64,000 nucleotides of DNA. Origin: Candidatus Yanofskybacteria bacterium (lineage in GTDB: Bacteria > Patescibacteriota > Minisyncoccia > 2-02-FULL-40-12 > GWA2-44-9). Position 1 is the stretch's first letter. Each line of letters begins with the position of its first letter. The notes beneath the pieces were generated by a model. It searched no databases. It was not told the DNA's origin and saw only the letters and a program-made list of their open reading frames with translations. This document shows, one piece after another, positions 7,217 through 54,596 of the stretch. Location of the stretch: contig JADZAY010000003.1 of assembly GCA_020852375.1 (NCBI GenBank), positions 6 through 64,005 on the forward strand, given 5' to 3'. The position numbers and the translations under genes are program-made.

Positions 7217-7647
7217 TGCTCCGCGACCTTACCATGATCTTCTCGGTACTCGTTTCGGTGTTCTCGCTGGGTTTTGGAGTGTACAAGAACATCGAGGCGG
7301 GGAATGCGCGTGGGTTTGCGTATGAGCAGGCATATCGCATTCTCGGTGCGGTCGAGGGTGCCAATATCGGTCCGGCGGCGAAGGCGTCGATCGTGGATGC
7401 CGCGTTTGCATCATTCGCCACTCCTCCTCCGGTGATCGACCTCTCTCGTTCGAGCGCCGACACTACGGTTTCCGCGGAGGCGTGCACTGAGGCGGCTCGT
7501 TCTCAATGTATCGCTCTCGCTCGCTCGCTCGCAGGTGCGAATGCACAGTGCGTGCGCGAGCGGGATGCTGGCGTTTCATGCGAACATGCGGTGGCGCTTC
7601 AGACAGCTATCGAGCAAACCGCATGCGTGCAATGTTTTATTCGCTGA
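7168..7647 (+). CDS. Small Cys-rich membrane-anchored protein (hypothetical)
   Basis: TM helix then a soluble region with 6 Cys (ACTEAARSQC...CVRERDAGVSC...TACVQC). Start may be the internal M at 7216. Confidence 0.45.
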   Translation: MFQRSSVPYCFLDSNGMLRDLTMIFSVLVSVFSLGFGVYKNIEAGNARGFAYEQAYRILGAVEGANIGPAAKASIVDAAFASFATPPPVIDLSRSSADTTVSAEACTEAARSQCIALARSLAGANAQCVRERDAGVSCEHAVALQTAIEQTACVQCFIR

Positions 7648-7648
7648 T

Positions 7649-8029
7649 ATGGAAAAACGAATGCTCTTCCCGTTGACGATGTTCTTGTTTGCCGGCGTTT
7701 CATTTGTGTTTGGGGGTTGGCAGTATTTCCAGGCGCGCGCCACGCACCAGGCATCTCAGCAGCGGATGGCATTCATCCTGACTTCGATCGAGGAAAGCGG
7801 CGTGTCGCGTGTTCAGAAGCAACAGCTCTACGCGCGCATCATGGACGGACTTCCCGCCGCGCCTAGCGTATTCGGGATCGATGTGTCCGGCTCATTCGCA
7901 AGTCCTGGGAGTGGCGACGCCTGCACGAGCGAAGGCCAGCGCACCGTGTGCCGTGCGCTCGTTGTGCGGGGGGTGTCGCGCGATGCGCAAAAGGCTATAT
8001 GTGGCGCGTGCTATCCCAGTATGGAGTAG
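7649..8029 (+). CDS. Small Cys-rich membrane-anchored protein, paralog-like of the preceding ORF
   Basis: ATG overlaps the previous stop (tgATATGg). TM helix plus a Cys pattern (ACTSEGQRTVC...AICGAC) resembling the upstream ORF. Confidence 0.45.
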   Translation: MEKRMLFPLTMFLFAGVSFVFGGWQYFQARATHQASQQRMAFILTSIEESGVSRVQKQQLYARIMDGLPAAPSVFGIDVSGSFASPGSGDACTSEGQRTVCRALVVRGVSRDAQKAICGACYPSME

Positions 8030-8229
8030 GTTTCGCATATTTCATGGCATGATCATGCACGGCGAAAGGAGGTGGAGAGCATCATGAGTACCGGTCTTTT
8101 GTTCGGACTTATCGGTGTCGCTGTATTGGTAGTTGCAGGAATCATCTGGGGACAGAGCAAGTAGCCTGATCGTCCCACGATAGCGCTGACTATGGTGGGA
8201 TGCATGAGGACGGTTGCCTTGTTCATCGT

Positions 8230-9213
8230 ATGAGCACACCTAGAAACACAATTGGTTCCCGGGCCGCCCCGCTAGACATGGTTCCGACGCGGGACGGGTA
8301 TGGGAAGGGAGTTGTTGATGCCGGCGAACGGGATGAGCGGGTGGTGGTTTTGTGCGCCGATCTTACCGAGTCGACCCGGAGCCACTGGTTTGCCGAGCGA
8401 TTCCCCGAGCGTTTCATTCAGGTTGGCGTTGCGGAGCAGAATCTTGCCGTCATCGCATCCGGCCTCGCGGCTGCAGGAAAGATCCCATTTATCGCGAGCT
8501 ATGCCACATTCAGCCCCGGCAGGAACAACGAGCAGATACGAACGAACATTTGTCTCAATGATGTGCCGGTGAAGGTGGTCGGCGCACACGCGGGCATCAG
8601 CGTTGGCCCCGATGGGGCTACGCACCAAGCCCTCGAAGACATCGCACTGATGCGCGTTCTACCGAACATGACGGTCGTTGTCCCGTGCGATGCGATCGAG
8701 GCGCGGAAGGCAACGCGTGCCATTGCCGAGACCGCGGGGCCTGCCTACCTCCGTCTCGGACGGGAGAAAAGCCCAGTGATTACGGACGACCAGACTCCCT
8801 TTGAGATCGGCCGCGCGCATGCACTGCAAGAGGGCGATGATGTTGCGATCATTGCGTGCGGGATACTGGTGCACGAGGCGCTTGTGGCCGCTGATTTACT
8901 GGCGAGCGAAGGTATTGCCTGTACCGTGCTGAACAATCACACGATCAAGCCGATGGATGAGGGCGCAGTGGTTTCTGCTGCGCGGCGGTGTGGGGCGGTG
9001 GTCACCGCCGAAGAACACCAGGTCGCCGGTGGGATGGGGTCTGCTGTCGCAGAGATGCTTGCGCGGGTCTATCCGGTGCCGATTGAATTTGTCGGTATCG
9101 GGGACCGATTCGGGGAGTCCGGTGCTCCCGCGGAGCTCATGAACGCATTTGGGCTTACGGCAGAGCGCATCGTTGTCGCCGCCAAGAATGTCCTTGCCAG
9201 AAAGAGCGGCTAG
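8230..9213 (+). CDS. Transketolase, C-terminal (pyrimidine-binding + C-terminal domain) subunit
   Basis: FIQVGVAEQNLAVIASGLA...VGAHAGISVGPDGATHQALEDIALMR matches the Tkt Pyr and C-terminal domains. Confidence 0.9.
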   Translation: MSTPRNTIGSRAAPLDMVPTRDGYGKGVVDAGERDERVVVLCADLTESTRSHWFAERFPERFIQVGVAEQNLAVIASGLAAAGKIPFIASYATFSPGRNNEQIRTNICLNDVPVKVVGAHAGISVGPDGATHQALEDIALMRVLPNMTVVVPCDAIEARKATRAIAETAGPAYLRLGREKSPVITDDQTPFEIGRAHALQEGDDVAIIACGILVHEALVAADLLASEGIACTVLNNHTIKPMDEGAVVSAARRCGAVVTAEEHQVAGGMGSAVAEMLARVYPVPIEFVGIGDRFGESGAPAELMNAFGLTAERIVVAAKNVLARKSG

Positions 9214-9236
9214 TATCAGCCATTCTTAGGGCGAAG

Positions 9237-9265
9237 TTTGACTTTCCTGAAAAATAGAGTATACT
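9237..9265 (+). promoter_or_regulatory. Sigma70-like promoter (TTGACT-16nt-TATACT) upstream of the DGR target gene
   Basis: ttgactttcctgaaaaatagagtatact, ~115 nt upstream of the start codon at 9384. Confidence 0.5.
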
Positions 9266-9383
9266 TAACATGCGGGGTGACATCAGTCCCTGCGTTGTTT
9301 GAAAACGAAGTATCACCGCACTGTGCGGCCCCGACCTCGGGCAAGAGGGACGTACACGCGCAACCAAGCGCAAGGAGACAGTC

Positions 9384-9989
9384 ATGAGCGAATTCGCATC
9401 CGCTCCGTACACTGCCGGGCAGTTGAATGCCATGGTCAAGAAGCTCGTGGAGCTCGCGGGACAGGATGGCCCCAAGAAGCTCTTGTCCGGTGAGCTGGTC
9501 CTCAAGGCGGCCAATCTCCTCCATCTCGTCACCACCAATCCCGTCCCCGCCGTGAAACGCTTCGCCGCCAGCGACCACTTCAAGGTCGGCACTTCCAAGA
9601 AGGCAGCGGTCCGTATCGGCTATCTCGGCGACAACTTCAAGAAGCACTTCCTGGCCAAGGTGGAGGTGAATGTTCCCGCCACCACGCTGGTCTTCTCCAC
9701 GCTCACTCGAAGCTCGCTGGATGCTCCCATTCTCGCTGAGCTGGGCACTCAAGCGCAGACAACCCTGGCCTCCCTCTGGGAGTGCCTGAAAGCTCAGGGT
9801 CACGGCCAGCCGGGCACCCTGCTGACCGATGGTCGATGGAACATCTTCTACATCTCAGACGCCAACGGCAACCCCTGGGCCGTGTGCGCGTCCTGGCACG
9901 TCGGCTACGGCGACTGGCGCGTGTTTGCCTACTCGGTGGACTACCCGGGCGAGTGGGACGGCGGCGGTCGGGTGGTGTCTCGCAAGTAG
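9384..9989 (+). CDS. DGR target (variable) protein; C-terminal variable region
   Basis: The 3' terminal ~112 nt (VR) is a near-copy of the downstream TR, differing only where the TR has A. C-terminus ...WHVGYGDWRVFAYSVDYPGEWDGGGRVVSRK. Confidence 0.8.
   Translation: MSEFASAPYTAGQLNAMVKKLVELAGQDGPKKLLSGELVLKAANLLHLVTTNPVPAVKRFAASDHFKVGTSKKAAVRIGYLGDNFKKHFLAKVEVNVPATTLVFSTLTRSSLDAPILAELGTQAQTTLASLWECLKAQGHGQPGTLLTDGRWNIFYISDANGNPWAVCASWHVGYGDWRVFAYSVDYPGEWDGGGRVVSRK
9873..9986 (+). repeat. DGR variable region (VR)
   Basis: Aligns base-for-base with TR 10281..10394. 17 mismatches, all at TR adenines. One further mismatch in the terminal 6 nt (IMH-like). Confidence 0.85.
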
Positions 9990-10017
9990 GGCTTGGGGGC
10001 TTGATTGCTCAGCCCTC

Positions 10018-10046
10018 GGACCGGTGCGGTTTATCCGCACCGGTCT
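10018..10046 (+). terminator. GC hairpin (11-bp stem, 4-nt loop) plus T-run downstream of VR; terminator and/or DGR homing-associated stem-loop
   Basis: gaccggtgcgg-ttta-tccgcaccggtc followed by tttttatttt. Confidence 0.6.
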
Positions 10047-10280
10047 TTTTATTTTCAGAAGTATTTGATATATTTTCAGCGGATAGTAGGCGAATCTGCC
10101 GGCGGTCACGGCTTCCGGCGGCCGAACTCTAGGCGTGCATACTTAGATGATACCGGAGCCTAAAAAATGAAGATACTTGGTGCGGAGTGCTAGGGCATTC
10201 CACATGCCGAATACGATACAGTCTCAAGAGGCCGGGCAACCGGAACCAAGGGACAGTGGCGCGGACGGCACTTCGTACGC

Positions 10281-10394
10281 ATCTGGGCCGTGTACGCGAA
10301 CTGGAACGTCGACTACGGCGACTGGAACGTGAATGCCAACTCGGTGGACAACCCGAACGAGTGGAACGGCGGCAATCAGGTGGTGTCTCGCCAG
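10281..10394 (+). repeat. DGR template region (TR)
   Basis: Carries AAC-rich codons (AAC TGG AAC GTC GAC TAC GGC GAC TGG AAC GTG AAT GCC AAC ...). 26 adenines, of which 17 are substituted in VR. Confidence 0.85.
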
Positions 10395-10414
10395 TCTCTT
10401 CACACAATAGCCCC

Positions 10415-10750
10415 TTACGGGGTTATTGTTTTCTTTTGCCATCCACCCAACATCCTCCCAATCTCATTGAGTTTTAGTGAAAGGGCGATATACTTCTTAT
10501 CGTTCAATGCTTGGAATTCCCAGCAAATCCGCAGGAAGAACTTGAGTGCATCGAGTGCTGTGGATGCCCGCTTCAAGTATCCGTCCTTTTGTCCGGGTTG
10601 ACGATAGGTCGCCGTGAAGATATTTTCTATGATGACAATAAAAAGCGAATCGATTTTTATTCCGAGACTATGCCGCAATTCTTTGCTGAACTGGAGCCGA
10701 TAGATGTGCCAGATTTTATAGGCGTCAATCAGTTTTTGAATGATTGGCAA
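10415..10750 (-). CDS. avd: Avd-like accessory variability determinant (four-helix-bundle / 23S rRNA IVS protein family)
   Basis: ~110 aa. C-terminal ...LSLKLNEIGRMLGGWQKK resembles the IVS-protein/Avd C-terminus. Located between TR and RT. Confidence 0.65.
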   Translation of the reverse strand: MPIIQKLIDAYKIWHIYRLQFSKELRHSLGIKIDSLFIVIIENIFTATYRQPGQKDGYLKRASTALDALKFFLRICWEFQALNDKKYIALSLKLNEIGRMLGGWQKKTITP

Positions 10751-11729
10751 GGTCTGGTTGGGGGGGGGTCTTCATAGTTTTGATACTATCACTTCCGTCG
10801 AGAACTTGCTCGGTGCATGGCAGGAATTCGTGCGCGGCAAAAAGACCAAGCCCGATGTACAAGAGTTCGGCCTTGGCTTGATGGATGCCATCCTCACTTT
10901 GCATGATGACCTCGTCACCGATTCTTACCACCATAGTCCATATCTCAAATTCCGCATCAATGACCCAAAGCCTCGCGATATAAGTAAGACCATTGTTCGC
11001 GACCGCCTCCTACATCATGCGCTCTACCGAGTGCTTTATCCATTCTTTGACGGGAAGTTCATTGCTGATTCCTATTCTTGCCGAGTCGCCAAGGGGGCGC
11101 ATCGAGCGCTGAACCGGTTCCGCGCCTTTGCCTGCCAGGTCAGCAAAAATCATACCCGTACCTGCTGGGTGCTAACATGTGATATTCGGAAGTTCTTTGC
11201 CAGCATCGATCATGGCATTCTGAACGACATCCTAGAAGCGCACATCTCCGACCCTGATACTCTCGGTCTCTTATCCGAAATCATCGAGAGCTTCTCACCC
11301 GGCTTACCCTTGGGCAACCTCACCTCTCAGCTTCTCGTGAACATCTACATGAATGAGTTCGATCAGTTCGCAAAACGACAACTCAAGACCAAGCACTATA
11401 TCCGCTACGCGGATGACTTTGTATTCTTGCATCAGGACAAGGGTTATTTGGAAGAACTGCTCCCGAGGGTCGGCGCCTTTCTCAGTGAGCGATTGAAGCT
11501 CAATCTGCATCCAAAAAAAGTATCTATCACGACTCTCGCCTCCGGTATCGACTTTCTCGGCTGGGTGCATTTTCCCGACCATCGGGTTCTACGGACAACC
11601 ACGAAACGGCGGATGATTCGGCGGGTTGTTAGCGGTACAACCGACGAACAAGCCGCGTCATATCGCGGCTTGTTGAGTCACGGCAACACCAAGAAACTGA
11701 TTAGTTTGCTTCCTGCTTCGGGAGCTTGA
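10740..11729 (+). CDS. DGR reverse transcriptase
   Basis: RT motifs present, including YADDFVF. The motif-4 residues LPLGNLTSQLL give the DGR-specific [ILV]GxxxSQ signature in place of the group-II QGxxxSP. Start uncertain (possibly TTG ~10758, after a G8-9 homopolymer). Confidence 0.85.
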   Translation: MIGKVWLGGGLHSFDTITSVENLLGAWQEFVRGKKTKPDVQEFGLGLMDAILTLHDDLVTDSYHHSPYLKFRINDPKPRDISKTIVRDRLLHHALYRVLYPFFDGKFIADSYSCRVAKGAHRALNRFRAFACQVSKNHTRTCWVLTCDIRKFFASIDHGILNDILEAHISDPDTLGLLSEIIESFSPGLPLGNLTSQLLVNIYMNEFDQFAKRQLKTKHYIRYADDFVFLHQDKGYLEELLPRVGAFLSERLKLNLHPKKVSITTLASGIDFLGWVHFPDHRVLRTTTKRRMIRRVVSGTTDEQAASYRGLLSHGNTKKLISLLPASGA

Positions 11730-12255
11730 AGAGTTCTTTGAGTTTCGCAAAGTCTGCTTCGAGCAACACCTTCGCGTCCGGGTCGCGGAGCGCGCGCTCG
11801 GGGTGGAACGTCGGGAGCAGGCGGTATCCGCCCAGCGGGAATGTGCGGCCGTGGACGTTTTCCACGGGAATCCGAAGCCCGACACCGTTGAGCGCAAGGT
11901 TGCCGAGCGTGACCACGATCTCCGGGTTCACGGTCCGGATCTCTTCTTTCAGGAAGGTTGCATGGCTTTTGATCTCCTTTGGGGTTGGGAGCTTGTCCTC
12001 TTCCGGACGATACTTTACCACGTTCGTGACATATACCTTGCGGCGGTCGATTCCCGCGTCGCGCAGGAGCTTATTGAGCAGCTTCGCGTGCGGGCCGCCG
12101 AGCGGGGCACCTGCCTTCTCGCCATGGGCGCCAAGCATCTCGCTTACCACTACAACTTTCGCGCCGACAGATCCTTTTCCGAACACGATTTTTCGGCCCT
12201 TGAACTTCTCCTTGAGGGCCTTATTGACCGAAGTGAGTGTCTTCGTGTCGGTCAT
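11701..12255 (-). CDS. Uracil-DNA glycosylase superfamily protein (family 4/5-like)
   Basis: UDG-fold motifs VVVVSEMLG...GAPLGGPHAKLL and C-terminal HP(E) motif. 184 aa. Confidence 0.65.
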   Translation of the reverse strand: MTDTKTLTSVNKALKEKFKGRKIVFGKGSVGAKVVVVSEMLGAHGEKAGAPLGGPHAKLLNKLLRDAGIDRRKVYVTNVVKYRPEEDKLPTPKEIKSHATFLKEEIRTVNPEIVVTLGNLALNGVGLRIPVENVHGRTFPLGGYRLLPTFHPERALRDPDAKVLLEADFAKLKELFKLPKQEAN

Positions 12256-12338
12256 ATGAGTAATGCAATACTACCATGTCAGCGTGGTTTTGGCAAGGTT
12301 TTGCAGGAAACCGGCCATAGGCCGGTTTCCTGATGAGG

Positions 12339-12357
12339 GTGGGCGACGAAGGAATCG
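12339..12357. repeat. 19-bp direct repeat of the tRNA-Ile 3' end (gtgggcgacgaaggaatcg), att-like
   Basis: Identical copy at 12527..12545, inside and just beyond the tRNA-Ile 3' end. Confidence 0.7.
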
Positions 12358-12527
12358 CCCTCGGCTCTCGGCGCGTCGTCACACGCCTCGGCCCTGCCTG
12401 TCGGCAGTCGAGCTGGGCACGGCCTCGCGGCGCCACTCGAGGTGGCGCATCGCTCCGGCCTTCGATTCCCTCGTCTGTTCATAATGCAGACGACACGGAT
12501 GCCAAACGGCATCCGTGTCGTCCCTTG

Positions 12528-12599
12528 TGGGCGACGAAGGAATCGAACCTTCGACCTCTGTCTTATCAGGACAGCGTTCTACCACTGAACTAGTCGCCC
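12528..12599 (-). tRNA. tRNA-Ile (anticodon GAT)
   Basis: The reverse complement folds as GGGCGAC-TA-GTTC..., with anticodon stem CTGTC/GACAG, loop CTGATAA and T-arm GGTTCGATTCC. No CCA is encoded. Confidence 0.85.
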
Positions 12600-12738
12600 A
12601 TAGCTGGGAAATCATAACCCGAAAGCTGGTATTTTGCAACTTTTCTGGTATGCTGGGTGTCTCTGGGCTCATACAGGAATACGTGTGTGCCCGGTGTTCG
12701 AGCGAGCGCAACGCAGTTGCGTTGTCCCGTTCTCATTT

Positions 12739-12812
12739 GGGCCCATAGCTCAGCTGGCTAGAGCGCCTCATTTGCAATGAGGAGGTCACCGGTTCGAATC
12801 CGGTTGGGTCCA
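12739..12812 (+). tRNA. tRNA-Ala (anticodon TGC) with G3:U70 identity pair
   Basis: GGGCCCATAGCTCAGCTGG...CCTCATTTGCAATGAGG...GGTTCGAATCCGGTTGGGTCCA. Confidence 0.9.
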
Positions 12813-12835
12813 CTCTATCGCGGTATCCGTACGCC

Positions 12836-13468
12836 ATGATCTCGCACGACGTCCCCTTTTCATCGCAGTATACCGATCTCGGGGATCATGAATGGCGTGC
12901 CCGCGGGTGCGGCATCACGTCCCTCAAAATGGTGATGGACTTCTGGCACCGCGTCACGGGAAGTCGTTGTGCTACGACTGTCGACGAGCTTCTTGCGCGG
13001 GGGCGGGCGATCGGCGCTTACATCCCGGGGGTTGGGTGGTCTCACCGCGGTCTGGTGAATCTTGCGCGCGAGTACGGCTATGAAGGGTTCAATGCCGATC
13101 ACGCCGAACAGGCCCCCATCCCGAAAGATGCTGCGGAGGCATGGGGTCTTCTGCTCAGTGAGCTTGCTCGCGGACCCGTGCTCGCGAGCGTCTACAGTGG
13201 GCTCGACCCGCACCGCGGCGGCGGGCACATCGTTGTGGTGACGGGTTTTTTTGACGGATTGGTCGCGCTCAATGATCCCGAGGAAATGCATGAGCGTGAA
13301 GGGCGACGCCTCATCGCGCTCGAGGTATTTCTTACCGCGTACAAGAGGCGGTTTATCGTTATCCGACCGGCGGAGGATTCGGCTGTGCACCACCCGACTG
13401 GTTCGGAGGCGACGCCGGGATCGCGGCAGGATTCTTCGGCCTTCGCAGTTTCAGGACGCCGATGGTGA
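12836..13468 (+). CDS. Papain-like cysteine peptidase, C39-like (peptidase_C39_2) domain protein
   Basis: Q...GCGITSL catalytic Cys context and a downstream His. The 3' end overlaps the convergent gene by ~110 nt, so the true stop or frame is uncertain. Confidence 0.55.
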   Translation: MISHDVPFSSQYTDLGDHEWRARGCGITSLKMVMDFWHRVTGSRCATTVDELLARGRAIGAYIPGVGWSHRGLVNLAREYGYEGFNADHAEQAPIPKDAAEAWGLLLSELARGPVLASVYSGLDPHRGGGHIVVVTGFFDGLVALNDPEEMHEREGRRLIALEVFLTAYKRRFIVIRPAEDSAVHHPTGSEATPGSRQDSSAFAVSGRRW

Positions 13469-15026
13469 TACCGATGGCGATCGCAACACTTGCGAGCGCG
13501 TAGGGTGCTGTCGCGCTGACGCGCTCAATGGGCGAGGGCTTGTGGACGCGCACGGTGGTGGGCGGGGCGACCTTTTCGAAGGCCCCGCCATGATTTGCAT
13601 ATACAATAACCCGATATTCACTATCTGGAAGGTCTCGAAGCGTTGCCGTATATTGATCTGCGGGCACAGCAACACTTCTGACGAGGTTCCCGCTCCCATC
13701 GAACACGTCGATGCGATACTCGTTCGTCGGCTGCCCCGGTGCGGCTGGGGGCCATTGGATATTTGGCTGGCCGCCGGTATCGCTGGCTGCCAGCGCTGAA
13801 GGTGTTGGCATCGGTGCTTGGGTCGTCTGCGGAGGGGTGGAGGGCGTCGGTGTCACTGCGAGCTCTTTCGGGGTGAGAATGTTCAGTGTGGTCTTCCCGG
13901 CGTTCCCACTCGCGTCATTCGAAGTAATGGTCGCCCGGAGGTAGGTGTCCGGGGGTAGATTGTTGACGGTAATGTAGTGCTCGAGTTCGAGCGTTGCGTC
14001 GCTGTTCCCCCCGACCGTAATGAGCAGTGGAGTGAGCTGTGCCACGACGGTGCTTGTGGCCGGCTCATTGGTGGTCCACGCGAATGTGGCGCTCGTTGGC
14101 GTCATGGTAACCGTGCGAGCATTCGTGATGATGGGGACTGCTGTATCGGGGGTGGGAGTTGGTGTTGGGCTGGTGGTCGGCGTCGGGGATCCGGTTGGTG
14201 ACGGATTCTGTGTCGGACTCGGGGACGGCTCGGTTCCAGAGATCGTGAATGTTCCGGTTGCCGATGATTGGTTTCCCCAGGAGTCGCGGATCGTCAGGGT
14301 GTACGTGTAGGTTCCTTGTGTGACCGCGAGAGTTGCTGTGCATGTTTGCACGCCGGTGAGGCATGAAGCGTATTGGCCGGTCCAGTCGAGTGAGGCGGTG
14401 TTGTATTCGATGCGGCGGTCAACGGGCTCGTTCGAAGAGAACGCCATGGTCGCTTGCGTCGGGTTTATCTGAGTGATAGTAACCCCGGAGATTTGCGGCG
14501 GGGTCGTCTCGGTGCTCTCGTAGAGAGCATAGAGGAAGCTAAAGCTCGTATCTTCATCGCCGAGGCGGGCGATACCGTTCGTATACGCAGGCAGGGGGGC
14601 GCCGTTGTGAGCGAGGAGTTTCTGTGCGGTCGCATAGTACAGGCGGAGGTGCGGTTCGGTTGCGGTAATGCGCATGCGGTATGCCTGGTTCCCGCTCACT
14701 GCTATTTGCGCGGGGAGCGCCACATGAACACGGGCACCCGTTTCGCTGTCGGCGATCGCCGGGATGGTGATTGCGCGCTCGCCTACCAGTGTTCCGGACG
14801 GATTAAAAAGTGCGAAGGTGGCATCTCCGGGATTACCCGCATTGCTGAGCCAAAGATCCATTCCGCTGAAGTGGTCGTTCAGCGGGAGGAAGACTTCAGA
14901 TGGCGTTTCAGAAGATGCGACGAGAAGGCTCTGGGCGTAGTCGGGGGCGAACTCCGTATAGGGTGCGGCATGCACGATCGATGATAGTGCGTACACGATG
15001 CCAATGATCGCGAGGGTCCATTTCAT
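13359..15026 (-). CDS. Secreted cell-surface protein with FN3-like repeats, PT-rich linkers and C-terminal TM anchor
   Basis: Signal peptide (MKWTLAIIGIVYALSSIVHA), repeated NEP...FAW FN3-like modules, (PT)n linkers and a C-terminal hydrophobic helix plus basic tail. Confidence 0.65.
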   Translation of the reverse strand: MKWTLAIIGIVYALSSIVHAAPYTEFAPDYAQSLLVASSETPSEVFLPLNDHFSGMDLWLSNAGNPGDATFALFNPSGTLVGERAITIPAIADSETGARVHVALPAQIAVSGNQAYRMRITATEPHLRLYYATAQKLLAHNGAPLPAYTNGIARLGDEDTSFSFLYALYESTETTPPQISGVTITQINPTQATMAFSSNEPVDRRIEYNTASLDWTGQYASCLTGVQTCTATLAVTQGTYTYTLTIRDSWGNQSSATGTFTISGTEPSPSPTQNPSPTGSPTPTTSPTPTPTPDTAVPIITNARTVTMTPTSATFAWTTNEPATSTVVAQLTPLLITVGGNSDATLELEHYITVNNLPPDTYLRATITSNDASGNAGKTTLNILTPKELAVTPTPSTPPQTTQAPMPTPSALAASDTGGQPNIQWPPAAPGQPTNEYRIDVFDGSGNLVRSVAVPADQYTATLRDLPDSEYRVIVYANHGGAFEKVAPPTTVRVHKPSPIERVSATAPYALASVAIAIGITIGVLKLRRPKNPAAIPASPPNQSGGAQPNPPPVG

Positions 15027-45424: not shown

Positions 45425-47533
<2,109 letters not shown>

Positions 47534-47850: not shown

Positions 47851-47945
47851 TAAGAACACTAATTGTGCGATGCCGCTAGACCACTGGCGCACACCATGGC
47901 GACACTGGTCTGGTGAAAGTCTTCCGCATCGCACGTACTACACAC

Positions 47946-49142
47946 ATGGCAGACGCATTCGATCGTAGCAAGCCACACGTCAACATTGGTACCATTGGCC
48001 ACGTTGACCACGGAAAGACCACCCTCACGGCAGGTATCCTGCACGTGCTGGACATGTACAAAGATGAGGGCTATGGCGCTCGCGTTGAGGCCATCGACTC
48101 CATCGACAAAGCTCCGGAGGAAAAGGCCCGCGGTATCACCATTCAGCTCCACCACTCGGAGTACTGGACGCCGAACCGCCACTACGCACACATCGACGCT
48201 CCGGGACACGCTGACTACATCAAGAACATGATCACGGGAGCCGCCCAGATGGACGGCGCGATCCTGGTTGTTGCTGCCACGGACGGCGCAATGCCGCAGA
48301 CCCGCGAGCACATCTTGCTTGCGAAGCAGGTCGGCGTTCCGTACATCATCGTCTTCCTGAACAAGGTGGATATGGTGGACGACAAGGAAATGCTCGACCT
48401 CGTTGAGGCTGAGCTGAAGGACCTGCTCGCAAAGTATGGCTTCACCGATTCTCCGATCATCCGCGGTTCGGGCCTGAAGGCTCTCGAGGGTAAGTCGAAG
48501 GATGATGAGTACGTGAAGGCGGTCAAGCAGCTCATCGACACCTGCGACAGCTACATCGCCGAGCCGAAGCGCGAGACGGACAAGCCGTTCCTCATGCCGG
48601 TGGAGGACATCTTCACCATCGAGGGTCGCGGTACCGTTGTCACTGGCCGCATCGAGCGCGGTATGTGCAAGGTCAACGATGAAGTCGAAGTCGTCGGTCT
48701 CCGCCCGACCCAGAAGACGGTCATCACGGGCATCGAGATGTTCAACAAGTCGCTCAACGAGGGTCTCGCAGGCGACAATGCCGGTATCCTTATCCGCGGT
48801 CTGAAGAAGGAAGATGTCGAGCGCGGACAGGTGCTTGCGAAGCCGGGTTCTATCACCCCGCACACCGAGTTCGAGGCCGAGATCTACGTTCTGACCAAGG
48901 AAGAGGGTGGCCGCCACACTCCGTTCTTCAAGGGCTACAAGCCGCAGTTCTACTTCCGCACCACGGATGTTACCGGTGAAGTGTTCCTCCCGGAGGGTTC
49001 CGAGATGATCATGCCGGGCGACACGGTGACCGTGAAGGTGGTCCTTATTGCCCCGATCGCTATGGAGGAGAAGCTCCGCTTCGCTATCCGCGAGGGCGGT
49101 AAGACCGTCGGCGCCGGTGCGGTTACGAAGATCAGCAAGTAA
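47946..49142 (+). CDS. tuf: Elongation factor Tu
   Basis: [10 protein letters not shown]. 398 aa from ATG 47946. Confidence 0.97.
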
Positions 49143-49166: not shown

Positions 49167-49493
49167 ATGGCCAAGAAAACCGACAAACAAGAAGCACGCA
49201 TCCGCATCAAGCTCCGTGCGTACGACAACAAGATCATCGATAAGTCCGCGCGACAGATCGCGGACACGATCGAGCGATATGGCGGCAAGCCGGTAGGACC
49301 GGTACCGCTCCCGACCGAGATCTCAAAGTTTACGGTTAACCGCGCGTCGTTCATCGATAAACACTCACGCGAGCAGTTCGAGATGCGCATTCACAAGCGG
49401 CTCATCGATATCCACGGGCCAACCCCGAAGATCATCGAGTCGCTCACCAACCTTGCCCTTCCGGCAGGGGTGGACATCGAAATCAAGATGTAG
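49167..49493 (+). CDS. rpsJ: 30S ribosomal protein S10
   Basis: [20 protein letters not shown]... classic S10. Confidence 0.95.
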
Positions 49494-49504
49494 TCGACGG
49501 CCAT

Positions 49505-49547
49505 GCGTCAAAACCCCGGCACCCCCACAAAGGGTGCCGTTGGGTTT
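49505..49547 (+). terminator. Rho-independent terminator immediately after rpsJ
   Basis: ccggcaccc-ccacaaa-gggtgccg followed by ttgggttttttga. Confidence 0.7.
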
Positions 49548-49737
49548 TTTGACCCTGCGGGCTTGCCCGATTTCTGCGTTGCTCGCTCCGGTCCTCCCTC
49601 GCCGTACCCTTTAGTACGGCTCGGTTCGGTCCTCGCGTCCGCCTCGTCCGCGTCCAAGCGCAGGCCGCTGGGGGAATCGGGAATGGCTAGACGAGACACT
49701 ATGAAGACCGTTTGACGTGGAACTCGGGAGGCGTAGT

Positions 49738-50388
49738 ATGTCCGCCATGCCTTCGATATTTTTAGACGAAAGTGGTGACCTAGGTTTTCGTTCCAGCAAG
49801 AGCGGATCTTCCCGCTTCTTTGTTGTTACCGTTATGTTTATTCCCGGGAGTGTGCGACCGGTCGAGAAGGTAGTATCAAAAACACACGCGTATTTGAATG
49901 CGGCAAAAGGCGGTCATCCGGGCGTGCTGCACGCTGTCAATGAATCGCCTGCGGTTCGAAAATATTTATTAAAATTGTTAAGCAAGAGAGATTGCAAGGT
50001 GATGGCAATCGTTCTGAATAAGAAAAAAGTCTTTACTAAATTACACGAAGAAAAGGCTGTCCTATACAACTTTGTAACAAACATCTTACTAGAACGAATC
50101 TATGCGAGGCATATCGTGCCAACCGGTGACGCAATCGATCTCGTGGCTTCAAAGCGAGAAACAAACAAATTTTTAAACGAGAATTTTAAGGATTACCTAA
50201 GGAGGCAAGTAACCCAGAGAAAGGACGGGGAATTGCGCGTACACATCCAGACTCCCGCACAGCACAAGGCGCTTCAAGCTGTTGATTTTGCGAGTTGGGC
50301 AATTTTTAGAAAACACGAGAAGGGAGACCCCGAATACTGTAATATCATCAGAAATATAGTTGTTGAGGAGAGCCCTTTATTCCCCTAG
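49738..50388 (+). CDS. DUF3800-family protein
   Basis: N-terminal IFLDESGD motif is the DUF3800 hallmark. SD GGGAGG 7 nt upstream. Confidence 0.7.
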   Translation: MSAMPSIFLDESGDLGFRSSKSGSSRFFVVTVMFIPGSVRPVEKVVSKTHAYLNAAKGGHPGVLHAVNESPAVRKYLLKLLSKRDCKVMAIVLNKKKVFTKLHEEKAVLYNFVTNILLERIYARHIVPTGDAIDLVASKRETNKFLNENFKDYLRRQVTQRKDGELRVHIQTPAQHKALQAVDFASWAIFRKHEKGDPEYCNIIRNIVVEESPLFP

Positions 50389-50563
50389 AAATACAAAACC
50401 TCGTGCGCTATTTGCGAGCAACCTTCCGGAAGCCCACGCACGAGGAATTACTTGTAAGTACAATATACACGCTTGTTATCCACAAGTCAATGGCTAGGAA
50501 ACAAAGTCGCCATTGAGTCAAGTTCTGGCTCCGAGGCCGGTTTTTTGCTAGATTTGCCGAGCT

Positions 50564-51187
50564 ATGGATATAAACTATTGGTATTATCCTCTCAGTGCAA
50601 TTCCTCAGACGTTAGCCGCAATGATTGCGCTGGCTGCGACCTTTGCGGCTGTGAAGTTAGATGTTTTTTCTAAGAAACTTGCGGAAAGCCGCAAAGACTT
50701 AAGGCGTTTTATTCTTCTAGTGACAACGGGTCTGAATTCGGACGAAAAAGAGATACATACAATCGAACCTCTAAGCAACCTAGAATTTCTCAATCTTTAT
50801 AAGAAGGGTTTGGCGGGTCTCAAGAGCGGGGACCCAGCGTTCGGATTGGAGCCTGCAACCTACGCGAAGTATCAGCAGGAGATGTATAGGATAATTAATT
50901 CAGAGTGGAACAGCTTCTTTTCAGCTAAGGATTTTAGGATCCTGGGCTACCTTTCGATGAAGAAAGATACCTTCGAAGATCTTCTACAGAAACGAATCAA
51001 GATTATCCGGTGGACCACTCAAAGTCTGGTGTTCGCGGCAATTGTCGCGGGAATTTCCTTGGCTATATTACCGTGCTTTAAGTATTTTCACGGCTCAATT
51101 TTAATAGTCGGGCTCATTACGGGTGTCGCCGTGCTGAGTATTTTAGCGACTGCGTTCAATGTCTGGAGAATTGCGAGGATGGATTAG
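50564..51187 (+). CDS. Hypothetical membrane protein (1 N-terminal + 2 C-terminal TM)
   Basis: AT-rich ORF with hydrophobic segments at both ends. Confidence 0.5.
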   Translation: MDINYWYYPLSAIPQTLAAMIALAATFAAVKLDVFSKKLAESRKDLRRFILLVTTGLNSDEKEIHTIEPLSNLEFLNLYKKGLAGLKSGDPAFGLEPATYAKYQQEMYRIINSEWNSFFSAKDFRILGYLSMKKDTFEDLLQKRIKIIRWTTQSLVFAAIVAGISLAILPCFKYFHGSILIVGLITGVAVLSILATAFNVWRIARMD

Positions 51188-51270
51188 CTTTTCTGGTCGG
51201 ATTGCTGCTTTCATTTCAGCGATAAATTGGGGCCGTTGATCAGAAGAGTCGTCAAGAGTATGCTGGACGG

Positions 51271-51963
51271 GTGATACAAGATGATGTCATCAGCTATCGC
51301 CAGATGTGTGACGCTGAGGAGGTTCAGACTCTGCAACGAGGAATGAACTATCGGTTATGGACTACCTATTCGGTGGTATTAATGTCGCAACGTGGGAACG
51401 CGCCATATGCTGACCGAGTCCATGACGATGGTATTACCATCGAATACGAGGGACACGACGAGCCTCGGAGTTCCGACCAGCCGAATCCAAAAACGGTAGA
51501 TCAACCATCGCAGACATCGATGGGGACACCAACCCAGAATGGTCTATTTAAGAAGGCGGTCGATGATTTCAAGGCTGGCAAATGTGGGCCCGAAAAGGTG
51601 AAGGTCTACGAAAAGCTATATCCCGGGGTTTGGTCACTGAAAGGGTTTTTTGATCTACGGGACTACGAGATAGTTCATGATGGCGTGCGGAACGTCTTCC
51701 GGTTTATTTTGCGCCTGTCTGAAGACCCAACGGAAAGGGCGGAGCGTGTGTCGGCATCATTTCATACTCGAGTGATTCCTTCAGAAGTGAAGAAGGCCGC
51801 ATATAAGCGCGACAAGGGGCAGTGTCAGATTTGTGGGTCAAAAGTAAACCTTCACTTTGACCACGACCTCCCGTATTCGAAAGGAGGTTCGAGCCTCACT
51901 GCCGAGAATGTTCGACTACTCTGCGCTAAACACAACCTAGAGAAGGGTGCTAAGATTCAATAA
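51271..51963 (+). CDS. SRA(YDG)-like domain + HNH nuclease (type IV modification-dependent restriction endonuclease-like)
   Basis: C-terminal CQICGSKVNLHFDHDLPYSKGG...LLCAKHN HNH motif. N-terminal YADRVHDDGITIEYEGHD and GPEKVKVYEKLYPGVWSLKGFFDLRDYEIVHDGVRNVFRFILRL resemble SRA-domain conserved blocks. Confidence 0.65.
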   Translation: MIQDDVISYRQMCDAEEVQTLQRGMNYRLWTTYSVVLMSQRGNAPYADRVHDDGITIEYEGHDEPRSSDQPNPKTVDQPSQTSMGTPTQNGLFKKAVDDFKAGKCGPEKVKVYEKLYPGVWSLKGFFDLRDYEIVHDGVRNVFRFILRLSEDPTERAERVSASFHTRVIPSEVKKAAYKRDKGQCQICGSKVNLHFDHDLPYSKGGSSLTAENVRLLCAKHNLEKGAKIQ

Positions 51964-51978
51964 TTAATAATTTGCACA

Positions 51979-52524
51979 ATGTTTGACCCAAAAGCCGTGC
52001 TCGGGCTATTTCTTTCAGTGGTGGCAAGGTATTGGTACTTTGTTCTGCTGGCTTTTGCTGTTTGGGTTATTGGCGAGTTGCTCTCTAGGAGGAGGCGGCA
52101 GGGATATCTTTATAGGCGGAAGGACTGTCCAATGACAAAATCTGAGCAAGTTTTTTATAAAGTTCTCGCGGGCGTCGTCGATGGGCGGTATTATGTTTTC
52201 CCACAGGTTCATCTGGATGCTCTACTTGAGCACAAGGTTCCCGGGCAGCGGTGGCAAGCTGCGTGGAGGCACATCAATGAGAAGTCGGTTGACTTTGTTC
52301 TCTGTGACAAGACTTCTTTGCGCACAGAGTTGGTGATCGAACTCGATGATTTTTCCCATGAGCGACCTGATCGCATTGAACGCGATAAGGAAGTCGAACG
52401 GATTTTGCAGGAGGCGCACTTGCCGCTCCTTCGCATCCCGCGAAGTGAGAGTTACGCTGGAAATGAAGTCGCACGGTCGATTAGCGAGGGTGTCGGAGGG
52501 GCATCGTTTGGCCCTACGTTGTAG
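51979..52524 (+). CDS. DUF2726-domain protein (restriction-endonuclease-like fold) with N-terminal TM
   Basis: VDFVLCD...LVIELDDFSHERPDRIERDKEVERILQEAHLPLLRI matches the DUF2726 core (D...E.D..H). Confidence 0.65.
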   Translation: MFDPKAVLGLFLSVVARYWYFVLLAFAVWVIGELLSRRRRQGYLYRRKDCPMTKSEQVFYKVLAGVVDGRYYVFPQVHLDALLEHKVPGQRWQAAWRHINEKSVDFVLCDKTSLRTELVIELDDFSHERPDRIERDKEVERILQEAHLPLLRIPRSESYAGNEVARSISEGVGGASFGPTL

Positions 52525-52813
52525 GCCTAACTCGCGAGGATGCGGTTCTTGACTTATGCGCAGAAATGGTGTATGATGGCTTCAGATGGGGTATGAAGCC
52601 CTGTCAGGAGGATAGAAGTCGTGCGCGAGCGGTTCTACACGTTCCTGGCGTGCCTCAAGTCCGACTTCGTCAACTGCTGGTTCCGGGGCGACGGCCCCTG
52701 CCAGAACCCCAAGCACTGGCAGTAGCGGCCGAAGCCTGGCCCGGGCGGAAGTGGAAACGCTTCCGCCTTTTCTTTTTTTGGAAGTGTGGTACAACCAAGT
52801 CCGGAGGTGGCGT

Positions 52814-53101
52814 ATGGCGGATACAAAGGATGTGGATGATCTTGCCGAAGACCTGGCCACTGTTGAAGGAGCAGTGAACCACATCAGTGCCGGCGTGCAC
52901 CGTGTGCTGACGACGTTCGCCGCAGGTGTGCGGCAGGACGCGGATGCGCTCTGTGCCCGTCTCAACCACGAGCCCGAAGTTCAGCTCTGGATCGCGGAGC
53001 ACGGGTTTCGGAGTCTTGCCGATGTGCCTCGCGAGCGCGTCCTCAGCGAGCTCATTCCTGCCGTCTACGCGCAGCACGGTGGCCGCGATCAGAGGCACTG
53101 A
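52814..53101 (+). CDS. Hypothetical protein
   Basis: SD GGAGGTG 4 nt upstream of ATG 52814. 95 aa. Confidence 0.45.
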   Translation: MADTKDVDDLAEDLATVEGAVNHISAGVHRVLTTFAAGVRQDADALCARLNHEPEVQLWIAEHGFRSLADVPRERVLSELIPAVYAQHGGRDQRH

Positions 53102-53356
53102 AAGATTCCCGCGTATGTACGCGGGACTTTTCTTTTTTCGGAATGCGCATACAATCGTGGGCGGAGGTGAGCTGTGGTAAGTCCGTACGAACCTGTGAAG
53201 TTGGTTGTGTGTCCGCGGTGTCGCGGAGCTGAGGTGGTCGAAGCGCAGAAGGGCTCCCGAGATTCTTACGAGCCAGTCGGGCTGAAGCGATGCCCGACTT
53301 GCAAGGGCACCGGCACGGTTGCACAGCGACAGCTCGCCCGCATTGCTCGGTAAGTC

Positions 53357-53390
53357 CAGCGCGCTTCCCCCTCGCCGCCATCCGGCCGCG
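53357..53390. repeat. 34-nt repeat / terminator-like hairpin (ttccccctcgccgccatccggccgcgagggg), copy 1
   Basis: Identical copy at 53722-53755. Both are followed by T-rich runs. Confidence 0.75.
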
Positions 53391-53455
53391 AGGGGTTTTT
53401 GTTGAACATTGACACGACTATATAAGCGATGTACGATTCATCTTAGGAGGGTTCG

Positions 53456-53701
53456 ATGAATCCATGGCTGGTGTCCGGGTTGGTTCTCGTGTGGGCCGCG
53501 CTGGGCATCCTGGGTTGGGCGTGGTTCAATTACATGCTCAACAGGGCGTATCCGCTCGGAGCGGGTGGGGCGGCGGTGGGAAGCGTCAAGGTCTTTGCGC
53601 TGCTGGTCGGGATTCTTGGCGGGCCGATCGCCATCCTGAACACAGCGGTCGAAGCCCGCAATTTTCCGGGAGTCCATCGCTGGGGCCTCCGCTTCTGGTA
53701 G
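53456..53701 (+). CDS. Small membrane protein (81 aa, 2-3 TM)
   Basis: Strong SD (taGGAGGGttcgATG). Hydrophobic. Confidence 0.55.
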   Translation: MNPWLVSGLVLVWAALGILGWAWFNYMLNRAYPLGAGGAAVGSVKVFALLVGILGGPIAILNTAVEARNFPGVHRWGLRFW

Positions 53702-53721
53702 AAGGTCGGCATCCGTTCCCG

Positions 53722-53755
53722 TGCTTCCCCCTCGCCGCCATCCGGCCGCGAGGGG
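53722..53755. repeat. 34-nt repeat / terminator-like hairpin, copy 2
   Basis: Identical to 53357-53390. Confidence 0.75.
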
Positions 53756-53775
53756 GGTCTTTCTTTAACGTGGGC

Positions 53776-53804
53776 TTGCATTCTTTTGGGGGTTCGTGTA
53801 TAGT
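53776..53804 (+). promoter_or_regulatory. Sigma70-like promoter for the rplC-secY operon (TTGCAT-17nt-TATAGT)
   Basis: ttgcattcttttgggggttcgtgtatagt. Confidence 0.55.
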
Positions 53805-53936
53805 CGGTGGGCTGACTTGAGCCGGGCGGCCGGCCTCTCAGCAGGGGTTTCCAGGTAGGCGTTAGAACCAGCCCGAGACGCCCCGACCGTGCGGTAGGTC
53901 CTTCGATGGATACCCTCGCACGTTGCTTCGCAGCTT

Positions 53937-53960
53937 GTCTGCATGAAGCAGACTTTTTTA
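53937..53960 (+). promoter_or_regulatory. Leader attenuator-like hairpin + T-tract immediately upstream of the rplC start
   Basis: gtctgc-atgaa-gcagac followed by tttttta. Sits ~135 nt downstream of the promoter. Confidence 0.45.
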
Positions 53961-53966
53961 TTGGAA

Positions 53967-54596
53967 ATGGCCAAAATGCTCGCAAAATTCATGCTTGCCA
54001 CCAAACTGGGGATGACCCAGGTATATGGCGATAAGGGTGAAATGATCGGAGTGACCCTGTTGCAGGCCGCCCCGAATGTGGTGACACAGGTCAAAACCGT
54101 TGAGAAGGACGGCTACGCTGCGGTTCAGCTGGGTGCGGGCACAAAGAAAGCGAAGAACATCAAGAAGGGGCTTCGTGGCCACTTCAAGGACCTTGGTAAT
54201 TTCCGCTGGACGCGCGAGTTTCGCGCAACATCGGTCGGTGGTAAGGATCTGGTCGTCGGCGATCGCGTCGATGTCTCGATCTTTGCTCCCGGCGATACGG
54301 TTCGCGTGAGCGGTCTCACCAAAGGAAAGGGTTTTGCCGGTGCGGTGAAGCGTCATGGGTTCCATGGTGCGCCTGCATCTCACGGGCACAAGCATGTTCA
54401 GCGCCATGTCGGCTCTATCGGTCAGCGCTTCCCGCAGCACACGCTGAAGGGAACTCGCGGTCCGGGTCGCGATGGCCAGGAGCGGGTGAGCATTCGCGGA
54501 TTGAAGGTTATTGTTGCCGATGCCGACACCGGTGTTCTTGCGGTGAAGGGTGCTATTCCCGGTGCGAAGGGCTCGCTGCTTGAGGTCACTGCCTAA
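53967..54596 (+). CDS. rplC: 50S ribosomal protein L3
   Basis: KLGMTQVY...start region. Start is ambiguous among the ATGs at 53943, 53967, 53976 and 53991; 53967 (MAKM...) lies just after the hairpin. Confidence 0.93.
   Translation: MAKMLAKFMLATKLGMTQVYGDKGEMIGVTLLQAAPNVVTQVKTVEKDGYAAVQLGAGTKKAKNIKKGLRGHFKDLGNFRWTREFRATSVGGKDLVVGDRVDVSIFAPGDTVRVSGLTKGKGFAGAVKRHGFHGAPASHGHKHVQRHVGSIGQRFPQHTLKGTRGPGRDGQERVSIRGLKVIVADADTGVLAVKGAIPGAKGSLLEVTA

Follow-up and report, generated by a model that had tools for sequence, protein, structure and literature searches.

We analysed a window of 64,000 nucleotides from a Candidatus Yanofskybacteria bacterium (contig JADZAY010000003.1, positions 6 to 64,005 of the forward strand; all coordinates below are those of this window), in which four co-oriented genes lie between the ribosomal protein genes rpsJ and rplC (Table 1). 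The third of them codes for a 230-residue protein with an N-terminal SRA domain and a C-terminal HNH nuclease domain, which is probably a stand-alone, modified-cytosine-dependent type IV restriction endonuclease resembling TagI and ScoA3IV. Its open reading frame (ORF) and the one that follows were both present as a first-pass annotation of the sequence had placed them, and that annotation had also suggested that the four genes might form a defence system.

Table 1. Features of the rpsJ-rplC region and of the SRA-HNH gene in the window
Feature	Position	Strand	Basis
fusA, upstream of rpsJ	45425-47533
tuf, upstream of rpsJ	47913-49142
rpsJ (S10), left flank	49167..49493	+	ORF
Terminator-like hairpin after rpsJ	49517-49539
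Low-GC foreign island, four co-oriented genes	49717..52524	.	GC, GC at third codon positions (GC3)
DUF3800 protein; likely true start ATG 49738 after a GGGAGG Shine-Dalgarno-like motif	49717..50388	+	Pfam, PADLOC
Multi-pass membrane protein, 207 aa	50564..51187	+	hydropathy
SRA-HNH gene, coding for 230 aa from a GTG start; predicted modification-dependent (type IV) restriction endonuclease	51271..51963	+	ORF
SRA domain, residues 1-150	51271..51720	+	Foldseek, transitive Pfam, hhalign
Predicted thumb L21-Q22-R23-G24-M25-N26; predicted pocket Y46, D48, Y59; finger-loop region 64-92	within SRA domain	+	conservation, spacing
Interdomain linker, residues ~151-165	51721..51765	+	variability in both alignments; low model confidence (pLDDT)
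HNH (beta-beta-alpha-Me) nuclease domain	51766..51963	+	Pfam HNH, HNH_5, PADLOC
Transmembrane (TM)-anchored DUF2726 protein, 181 aa	51979..52524	+	Pfam, AlphaFold2 (AF2), Foldseek
rplC (L3), right flank	53943..54596	+	ORF

Domain architecture and predicted base pocket of the SRA-HNH protein

The nuclease domain was recognized directly by profile searches. Residues 185-227 matched Pfam HNH with 27.7 bits (cutoff 21.4 bits); the protein was also matched by Pfam HNH_5 with 24.3 bits and by the REase_II HNH models of PADLOC at an E-value of 5e-8. The motif comprises C185-x2-C188, H195-F-D197-H198, N213 and C218-x2-H221-N222, and all of its positions, both zinc-binding and catalytic, are invariant across the 40 homologues of the close-family alignment. 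Within it, C185, C188, C218 and H221 are assigned as zinc ligands and D197-H198, N213 and N222 as catalytic residues. The window copy is full length and carries no frameshift. The NCBI protein model (P0001, 206 aa) begins at M25 (position 51343) as opposed to the GTG at 51271, a start that would remove a conserved N-terminal strand, a helix and the thumb-loop region; the GTG start is supported by the homologues, whose alignments begin at residue 1-4.

Judged by predicted fold, transitive homology and profile alignment, the N-terminal ~150 residues are a divergent SRA domain. The AF2 model of the protein had a mean predicted local distance difference test score (pLDDT) of 81.5 and a predicted TM-score (pTM) of 0.80, and its best 35 Foldseek matches in the PDB were SRA domains without exception (E 1.4e-5 to 6e-3, probability 0.99-1.00). 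These comprised SUVH5, SUVH6, KRYPTONITE, SUVH9, UHRF1, UHRF2, NP95, AspBHI and ScoMcrA, so that the SRA modules of two modification-dependent enzymes, AspBHI and ScoMcrA, were among them. A profile of residues 1-152 retrieved 887 cluster representatives; Pfam SAD_SRA (PF02182) matched 28 of 47 diverse full-length remote relatives among them, with a best E-value of 8e-8. In a profile alignment by hhalign, the domain was aligned to the SRA domain of UHRF1, the sequence of which is to be treated with caution, over 121 columns with a probability of 77% (E 1.9e-5), pairing Y46 with UHRF1 Y466 and Y59 with Y478. Starting from the shallow close-family alignment, hhalign gave no significant SRA match, and Pfam, NCBIfam and PADLOC searches with the window protein returned HNH matches only.

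The predicted base pocket, composed of two aromatic walls, a carboxylate and a thumb residue with SUVH5-like spacing, is conserved. In SUVH5 the flipped base is stacked between Tyr416 and Tyr428 and read by Asp418, while the thumb-loop residue Gln392, together with Gly394, occupies the gap left by the base (PMC4740795); the TagI equivalents are Tyr55, Tyr67, Asp58 and Gln35 (PMC6212794). Conservation of the candidate counterparts Y46, D48 and Y59 is 90% or higher in a wide-family alignment, and in the close family Q22-R23-G24, and with it the LQRGMN motif, is invariant. Q22 and Y46 are 24 residues apart, equal to the distance from Gln392 to Tyr416 in SUVH5, and D48 stands at Y+2, as does Asp418. 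The spacing from Y46 to Y59 is 13, as compared with 12 in SUVH5, UHRF1 and TagI. After the Y59-E60-G61 wall come H62 and D63. Neither residue varies in the close family, and the conservation of H62 still reaches at least 90% in the wider one.

These results bear out most of what the first-pass annotation had proposed for this protein, namely an HNH motif at the C-terminus, an SRA-like N-terminal half, which modelled as an SRA fold and not as an unrelated one, and the fusion of the two in a McrA/TagI-like architecture, which is also that of ScoA3IV. Conserved SRA-like blocks are found at residues 52-63 (DDGITIEYEGHD) and 125-149 (GFFDL...FRFILRL). The Pro/Ser/Thr-rich stretch that had been taken for the interdomain linker turned out to be something else: residues 64-88 belong inside the SRA domain, in its finger-loop region, where P73, K74, D77, Q78, G85, T88, Q89, N90, G91 and F93 vary little or not at all. 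The linker proper is at residues ~150-165, the sole segment that varies in both sequence and length in the close- and wide-family alignments, and residues 155-163 are the sole internal stretch of the AF2 model with a pLDDT below 50.

Other architectures were observed in the same SRA clade (P0129, P0197 and P0183), namely HIT-SRA-HNH (350 aa), PemK/MazF-SRA-HNH (397 aa) and a D12-class adenine methyltransferase fused to an SRA domain (429 aa), in which no HNH domain was seen.

Family distribution and predicted target

Defence by SRA-HNH enzymes of type IV is of an already known kind, and the clade described here is sequence-divergent, uncharacterized and very widespread. More than 5500 proteins were retrieved at E <= 1e-3, the best 120 of which are 62-100% identical over their whole length. 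A scan of one genome per species yielded 221 loci, and the best 80 of these, all from metagenome-assembled genomes, encode proteins with 58-68% identity to the window protein and are spread over more than ten phyla, with hosts in the Patescibacteria, Acidobacteriota, Gamma- and Alphaproteobacteria, Omnitrophota, Zixibacteria, Bacteroidota and Chloroflexota and, among the archaea, in the Thermoplasmatota and Woesearchaeota. A search of 2.9 million viral contigs (IMG/VR) yielded no member of the family, and searches of plasmid and phage collections yielded no full-length one.

To describe the genomic context of the family, ORFs were called and neighbours clustered at 86 non-redundant SRA-HNH loci, to which all neighbourhood counts given here refer. 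The context is that of defence islands. A helicase of the SLFN-group-3/DUF2075 type was found in 23 loci, usually at position -1, and a MazG-like protein in 21, usually at position -2; RadC (seven loci), Fic (five), PDDEXK_1 (five), a complete MvaI/BcnI-type restriction-modification pair with an amino-methyltransferase (five) and DpnI-like genes (four) were also recurrent. In more than half of the loci not one of the nine recurrent neighbour families was present, and the gene therefore behaves like a mobile module that consists of a single gene and is autonomous. A screen for methyltransferases with crude motifs, covering three genes on either side of the SRA-HNH gene, detected no C5-methyltransferase motif at any of the 86 loci, while amino-methyltransferase motifs were near the gene in seven. 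The absence of C5-methyltransferases is the pattern expected if 5-methylcytosine (5mC) is the target, and Lutz et al. argued from the same pattern for the modification dependence of PUA-HNH enzymes (PMC6765204).

Several points weigh against assigning the protein to the modified-cytosine-dependent SRA-HNH enzymes. Among the Pfam families that the first-pass annotation had named for this region, HNH, DUF2726 and DUF3800 were matched, but SAD_SRA was not matched by the window protein itself, even at E <= 1. Likewise, phmmer and the close-family profile retrieved no SRA chain from the PDB sequences, only HNH and IscB, and the identity to solved SRA domains is only 13-17%. The pocket was assigned from residue spacing and the single hhalign alignment to the UHRF1 sequence, not from superposed coordinates. 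The BLAST check for C5-methyltransferases, which was negative, covered the 64 kb of the window, and our literature search found no biochemically characterized member of this clade. Finally, about one-quarter of the loci show tight linkage of the gene to the MazG-like/helicase pair, and partners may thus be required by some members.

The divergence of the SRA domain, with no direct Pfam match and 13-17% identity to solved domains, would also fit a different target. It is conceivable, if unlikely, that the domain reads not 5mC or 5-hydroxymethylcytosine (5hmC) but, for example, a base that is damaged or carries a different modification, a mismatch, or DNA that is single-stranded or unusual, or that the enzyme is an HNH nickase acting independently of modification or a selfish endonuclease. 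The one extra residue between the pocket tyrosines and the conserved H62/D63, which have no counterpart in the T-G-S-G-G of UHRF1, point in this direction, as does the PUA-HNH relative ScoA3V, which responds to N6-methyladenine (PMC6765204). However, D48 lies where SUVH5 has Asp418 and paired tyrosines are the hallmark of cytosine-specific pockets, amino-methyltransferases are tolerated next to the gene in seven of the 86 loci while a C5-methyltransferase motif was detected in none, and a selfish element is difficult to reconcile with the absence of the family from phage and viral collections and of any intein or intron context in the sampled loci.

Candidate partner genes in the island and across the family

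The GC content of the host genome is ~58%. The island genes have a GC content of 44-51% and a GC3 of 48-54%, as compared with a GC3 of 63-78% in the flanking ribosomal and translation genes, and we therefore conclude that they were acquired horizontally. The gap between rpsJ and rplC spans 4.45 kb in the window (49494-53942), while 65 related CPR (Candidate Phyla Radiation) loci that carry rpsJ together with rplC have 9-1302 nt, mostly ~100-300 nt, between rpsJ and the point at which the rplC alignment begins. In the closest relative (L093, S10 97% identical) at least 7 kb of different cargo follows rpsJ (7300-14294), including RhuM and Fic fragments, MmeI N-terminal and helicase-spacer domains, a C5-methylase fragment, DUF6998 and a trypsin-like protease, which suggests that in this lineage the rpsJ-rplC junction, inside the S10 operon, is an integration hot spot at which defence cargo varies. 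No convincing direct repeats, att-like sites, integrase or nearby tRNA were found at the island flanks.

The gene downstream of the SRA-HNH gene matched Pfam DUF2726 (PF10881) with 105.9 bits. Its product has an N-terminal hydrophobic helix at residues ~4-36, seen in the hydropathy profile and confidently modelled, followed by RRRR, an arrangement that under the positive-inside rule would place the catalytic domain in the cytoplasm. The AF2 model (pLDDT 83) matched BstEII, TnsA and the Vsr-like I-Bth0305I in Foldseek, and K102-S-V-D105, E121-L-D123-D124, H127, R132 and R135-D136 form an invariant core. The protein is thus, as had been proposed, a TM-anchored DUF2726 protein with a predicted PD-(D/E)XK fold, and model and conservation suggest that it is a membrane-tethered and probably active nuclease. 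PADLOC gave no match for it, and no established function for any DUF2726 protein was found in the literature.

Since the two nuclease genes are co-oriented, 15 nt apart and in one low-GC island, they might constitute an obligate two-nuclease module, possibly enlarged to four genes by the DUF3800 and membrane proteins, in which, for example, the SRA-HNH protein would sense modified DNA and the membrane-tethered PD-(D/E)XK nuclease would degrade DNA at its site of entry. The same gene order recurs in the lineage of P0003 (L009/L010), where a gene for a 182-aa TM-DUF2726 protein lies 3 nt downstream of the HNH gene (in L009 it was detected by tblastn, phmmer on the called ORFs having missed it), the DUF2726 active-site residues are conserved, and in locus L087 a 36%-identical DUF3800 homologue is encoded 2.4 kb downstream of the SRA-HNH gene, together with a MazG-like/helicase pair. 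Nevertheless, we consider such a module improbable. DUF2726 adjoins the SRA-HNH gene in only two of the 86 loci, the window and the P0003 lineage. Between these two, identity is 75% for the HNH proteins but only 34-36% for DUF2726, and the closest homologues of DUF2726 (48-55% identity) are found in unrelated contexts that lack an HNH gene. This mismatch in identity argues for independent juxtaposition rather than co-inheritance. In addition, the nearest HNH relative, P0002 (84%), is followed by a different TM protein of 135 aa, and the lack of a PADLOC match for DUF2726 also counts against the module.

The two upstream genes gave a similar picture. The DUF3800 protein matched Pfam with 42.3 bits and the PADLOC model DUF3800_VII at E 3e-5, and DUF3800 was near the SRA-HNH gene in two of the 86 loci. 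DUF3800 genes are reported to occur with 11 structured RNA motifs that are unrelated to one another (PMC5737381); the gene in the window is bordered by intergenic regions at 49494-49716 (223 nt, GC-rich) and 50389-50563 (175 nt), and no motif of the DUF3800-associated kind was recovered when the island was scanned with Rfam. The 207-aa membrane protein, with hydrophobic segments at residues 12-36 and 150-201, matched no family in Pfam, PADLOC or NCBIfam and is part of a small family, 23 proteins in all, that is confined to CPR bacteria. Among the SRA-HNH loci it occurs in the window only, and its sampled homologues follow unrelated upstream genes, not DUF3800, which speaks against the four-gene form of the module; the family may be a variable-partner two-gene module in its own right. 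In two loci (L173, 4526-5624, and L174, 4277-5615) the membrane protein starts 2-5 nt after a different upstream ORF without a family match. Taken together, a conserved system of four genes (DUF3800, membrane protein, SRA-HNH and DUF2726) or of two, as the first-pass annotation had envisaged, is not supported by their co-occurrence across the 86 loci, and the DUF2726, DUF3800 and membrane proteins most likely represent separate pieces of cargo that share one variable island.

A partnership of another kind is suggested by the helicase and the MazG-like gene, which are both present in 19 of the 86 loci. They are mostly at the fixed positions -1 and -2 on the strand of the SRA-HNH gene, and often overlap or lie a few nucleotides apart. 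The helicase is similar to the defence helicases Nhi, AbiO and PDC-S41. The SRA-HNH protein could accordingly be the nuclease part of a system with a MazG-like pyrophosphohydrolase and an SLFN-group-3/DUF2075 helicase, and the window copy, given that both of these genes are absent from the window, an orphan whose function is reduced or lost without them. We regard this as quite doubtful, since about three-quarters of the loci lack the pair and yet encode HNH proteins that are 58-68% identical with all key residues intact, a conservation which argues for autonomous function. The intact reading frame of the window copy likewise does not resemble a remnant, and the characterized SRA-HNH enzymes TagI, ScoA3IV and MsiJI work alone. 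No description of the trio was found in the literature. Trio loci include L001, L002, L004, L011, L021, L023, L033, L035, L040, L057, L060, L061, L064, L081, L087 and L089, among others; RadC or Fic is frequently encoded upstream, and some of the helicases carry GIY-YIG and S24-peptidase domains.

Two further possibilities were set aside. A type II HNH restriction endonuclease was rejected because there is no cognate methyltransferase, none being found in the island by Pfam, NCBIfam or BLAST, and in the five loci with a methyltransferase at position -2 that enzyme is already paired with a restriction endonuclease of the MvaI/BcnI family; a homing endonuclease seemed improbable for a family that is found in cellular defence islands and is missing from viral collections.

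Beyond the island, the segment 52540-53760 contains three small cassettes of host-like GC content with promoter-like and terminator-like elements. Their repeats are 360 nt apart, with 72% identity between 52767-52809 and 53127-53169 and 97% identity between the hairpins at 53360-53395 and 53720-53755. The cassettes encode a 116-aa ORF, a 59-aa double-CxxC zinc-ribbon ORF and an 81-aa ORF with two TM segments, none of which had a homologue in 80 related rpsJ loci, and a 34-aa Cys-rich ORF (~52621-52725) lies downstream of an AGGAGG motif. An Rfam match to the Moco riboswitch aptamer at 52695-52805 was below threshold (23.6 bits against a gathering cutoff of 36, E 0.023), overlaps a terminator-like hairpin and is probably due to chance.

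Proposed mechanism and comparison with known systems

For the stand-alone SRA-HNH enzyme that we favour, the analyses above show the domain architecture, the fold, conserved residues of the pocket and the catalytic site, the distribution and neighbourhoods of the family and the foreign composition of the island, and from these we infer the ligand (a modified cytosine), the cleavage of DNA and a role in defence. By analogy with SUVH5, UHRF1 and TagI, the N-terminal SRA domain would scan duplex DNA, and a flipped 5-substituted cytosine (5mC and/or 5hmC) would sit between Y46 and Y59, with D48 reading its Watson-Crick edge and Q22 of the thumb loop (LQRGMN) filling the place of the flipped base. 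The flexible linker of ~15 residues would tether the zinc-stabilized HNH nuclease, which would nick or cut nearby DNA, probably as a dimer, and host DNA would be spared if the modification is absent from it. The gene arrived horizontally within the low-GC four-gene island between rpsJ and rplC.

A more far-reaching combination of these elements, to which we assign a low probability, is that this major unstudied clade, conserved at 58-68% identity from CPR bacteria to archaea, has an altered pocket (the extra loop residue and H62-D63) that may read a base modification other than 5mC or 5hmC, that in many genomes it acts within a three-gene system against modified phages together with a MazG-like (d)NTP pyrophosphohydrolase and an SLFN-like helicase, and that in the window it is perhaps teamed with the membrane-tethered DUF2726 nuclease.

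If the stand-alone reading is correct, a large, compact (230 aa) and widely distributed clade, which standard domain annotation names merely "HNH endonuclease", would join the SRA-HNH modification-dependent nucleases, and type IV restriction would be present in CPR bacteria with their tiny genomes. SRA-HNH enzymes serve as reagents for the mapping of 5mC and 5hmC, and the different pocket geometry could bring a new specificity. The rpsJ-rplC landing site also falls inside one of the most conserved gene orders of bacteria.

The best structural matches of the SRA domain were those of plant SUVH5 and SUVH6 (E 1.4e-5 to 2e-4, TM-score to target 0.55-0.67), which share with the window protein the spacing Q-x-G ...24... 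Y-x-D ... Y at an identity of 14-17%. Unlike the window protein, they belong to chromatin readers of eukaryotes, in which a SET methyltransferase domain accompanies the SRA domain and there is no nuclease. EcoKMcrA, ScoMcrA and the EVE-HNH enzyme VcaM4I likewise combine a sensor of modified cytosine (or phosphorothioate) with a C-terminal HNH domain in type IV defence; neither the non-SRA N-terminal reader of EcoKMcrA, the sulfur-binding domain of ScoMcrA nor the EVE domain of VcaM4I was seen in the window protein. The DUF2726 neighbour resembles Vsr-like PD-(D/E)XK nucleases in its fold and its conserved D...E-x-D-D...H core, and differs from them in its N-terminal TM helix.

The closest resemblance is to the SRA-HNH enzymes TagI, ScoA3IV/Sco5333, TbiR51I, MsiJI and VcaCI, of which TagI was set beside the window protein by its published residues. 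As in the TagI/ScoA3IV group, an N-terminal SRA domain of ~150 aa, a flexible linker and a C-terminal zinc-stabilized HNH domain follow one another, the predicted pocket has two aromatic walls, a carboxylate and a thumb-loop glutamine, and the gene stands alone with no adjacent C5-methyltransferase. In contrast, the second zinc motif of the window protein is CxxH followed by N, an HNN-type ending that differs from that of the group; the pocket aspartate is at Y+2, as in SUVH5, and at Y+3 in TagI; and the two tyrosines are spaced by 13 in the window protein and by 12 in TagI. The SRA domain of TagI is 42% identical to that of UHRF1 (PMC6212794), far from the 13-17% that the window protein shares with solved SRA domains. 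The ScoA3IV group is found mainly in Actinobacteria and Proteobacteria, whereas the clade of the window protein is that of uncultured CPR bacteria, Acidobacteriota, Proteobacteria, Omnitrophota and archaea.

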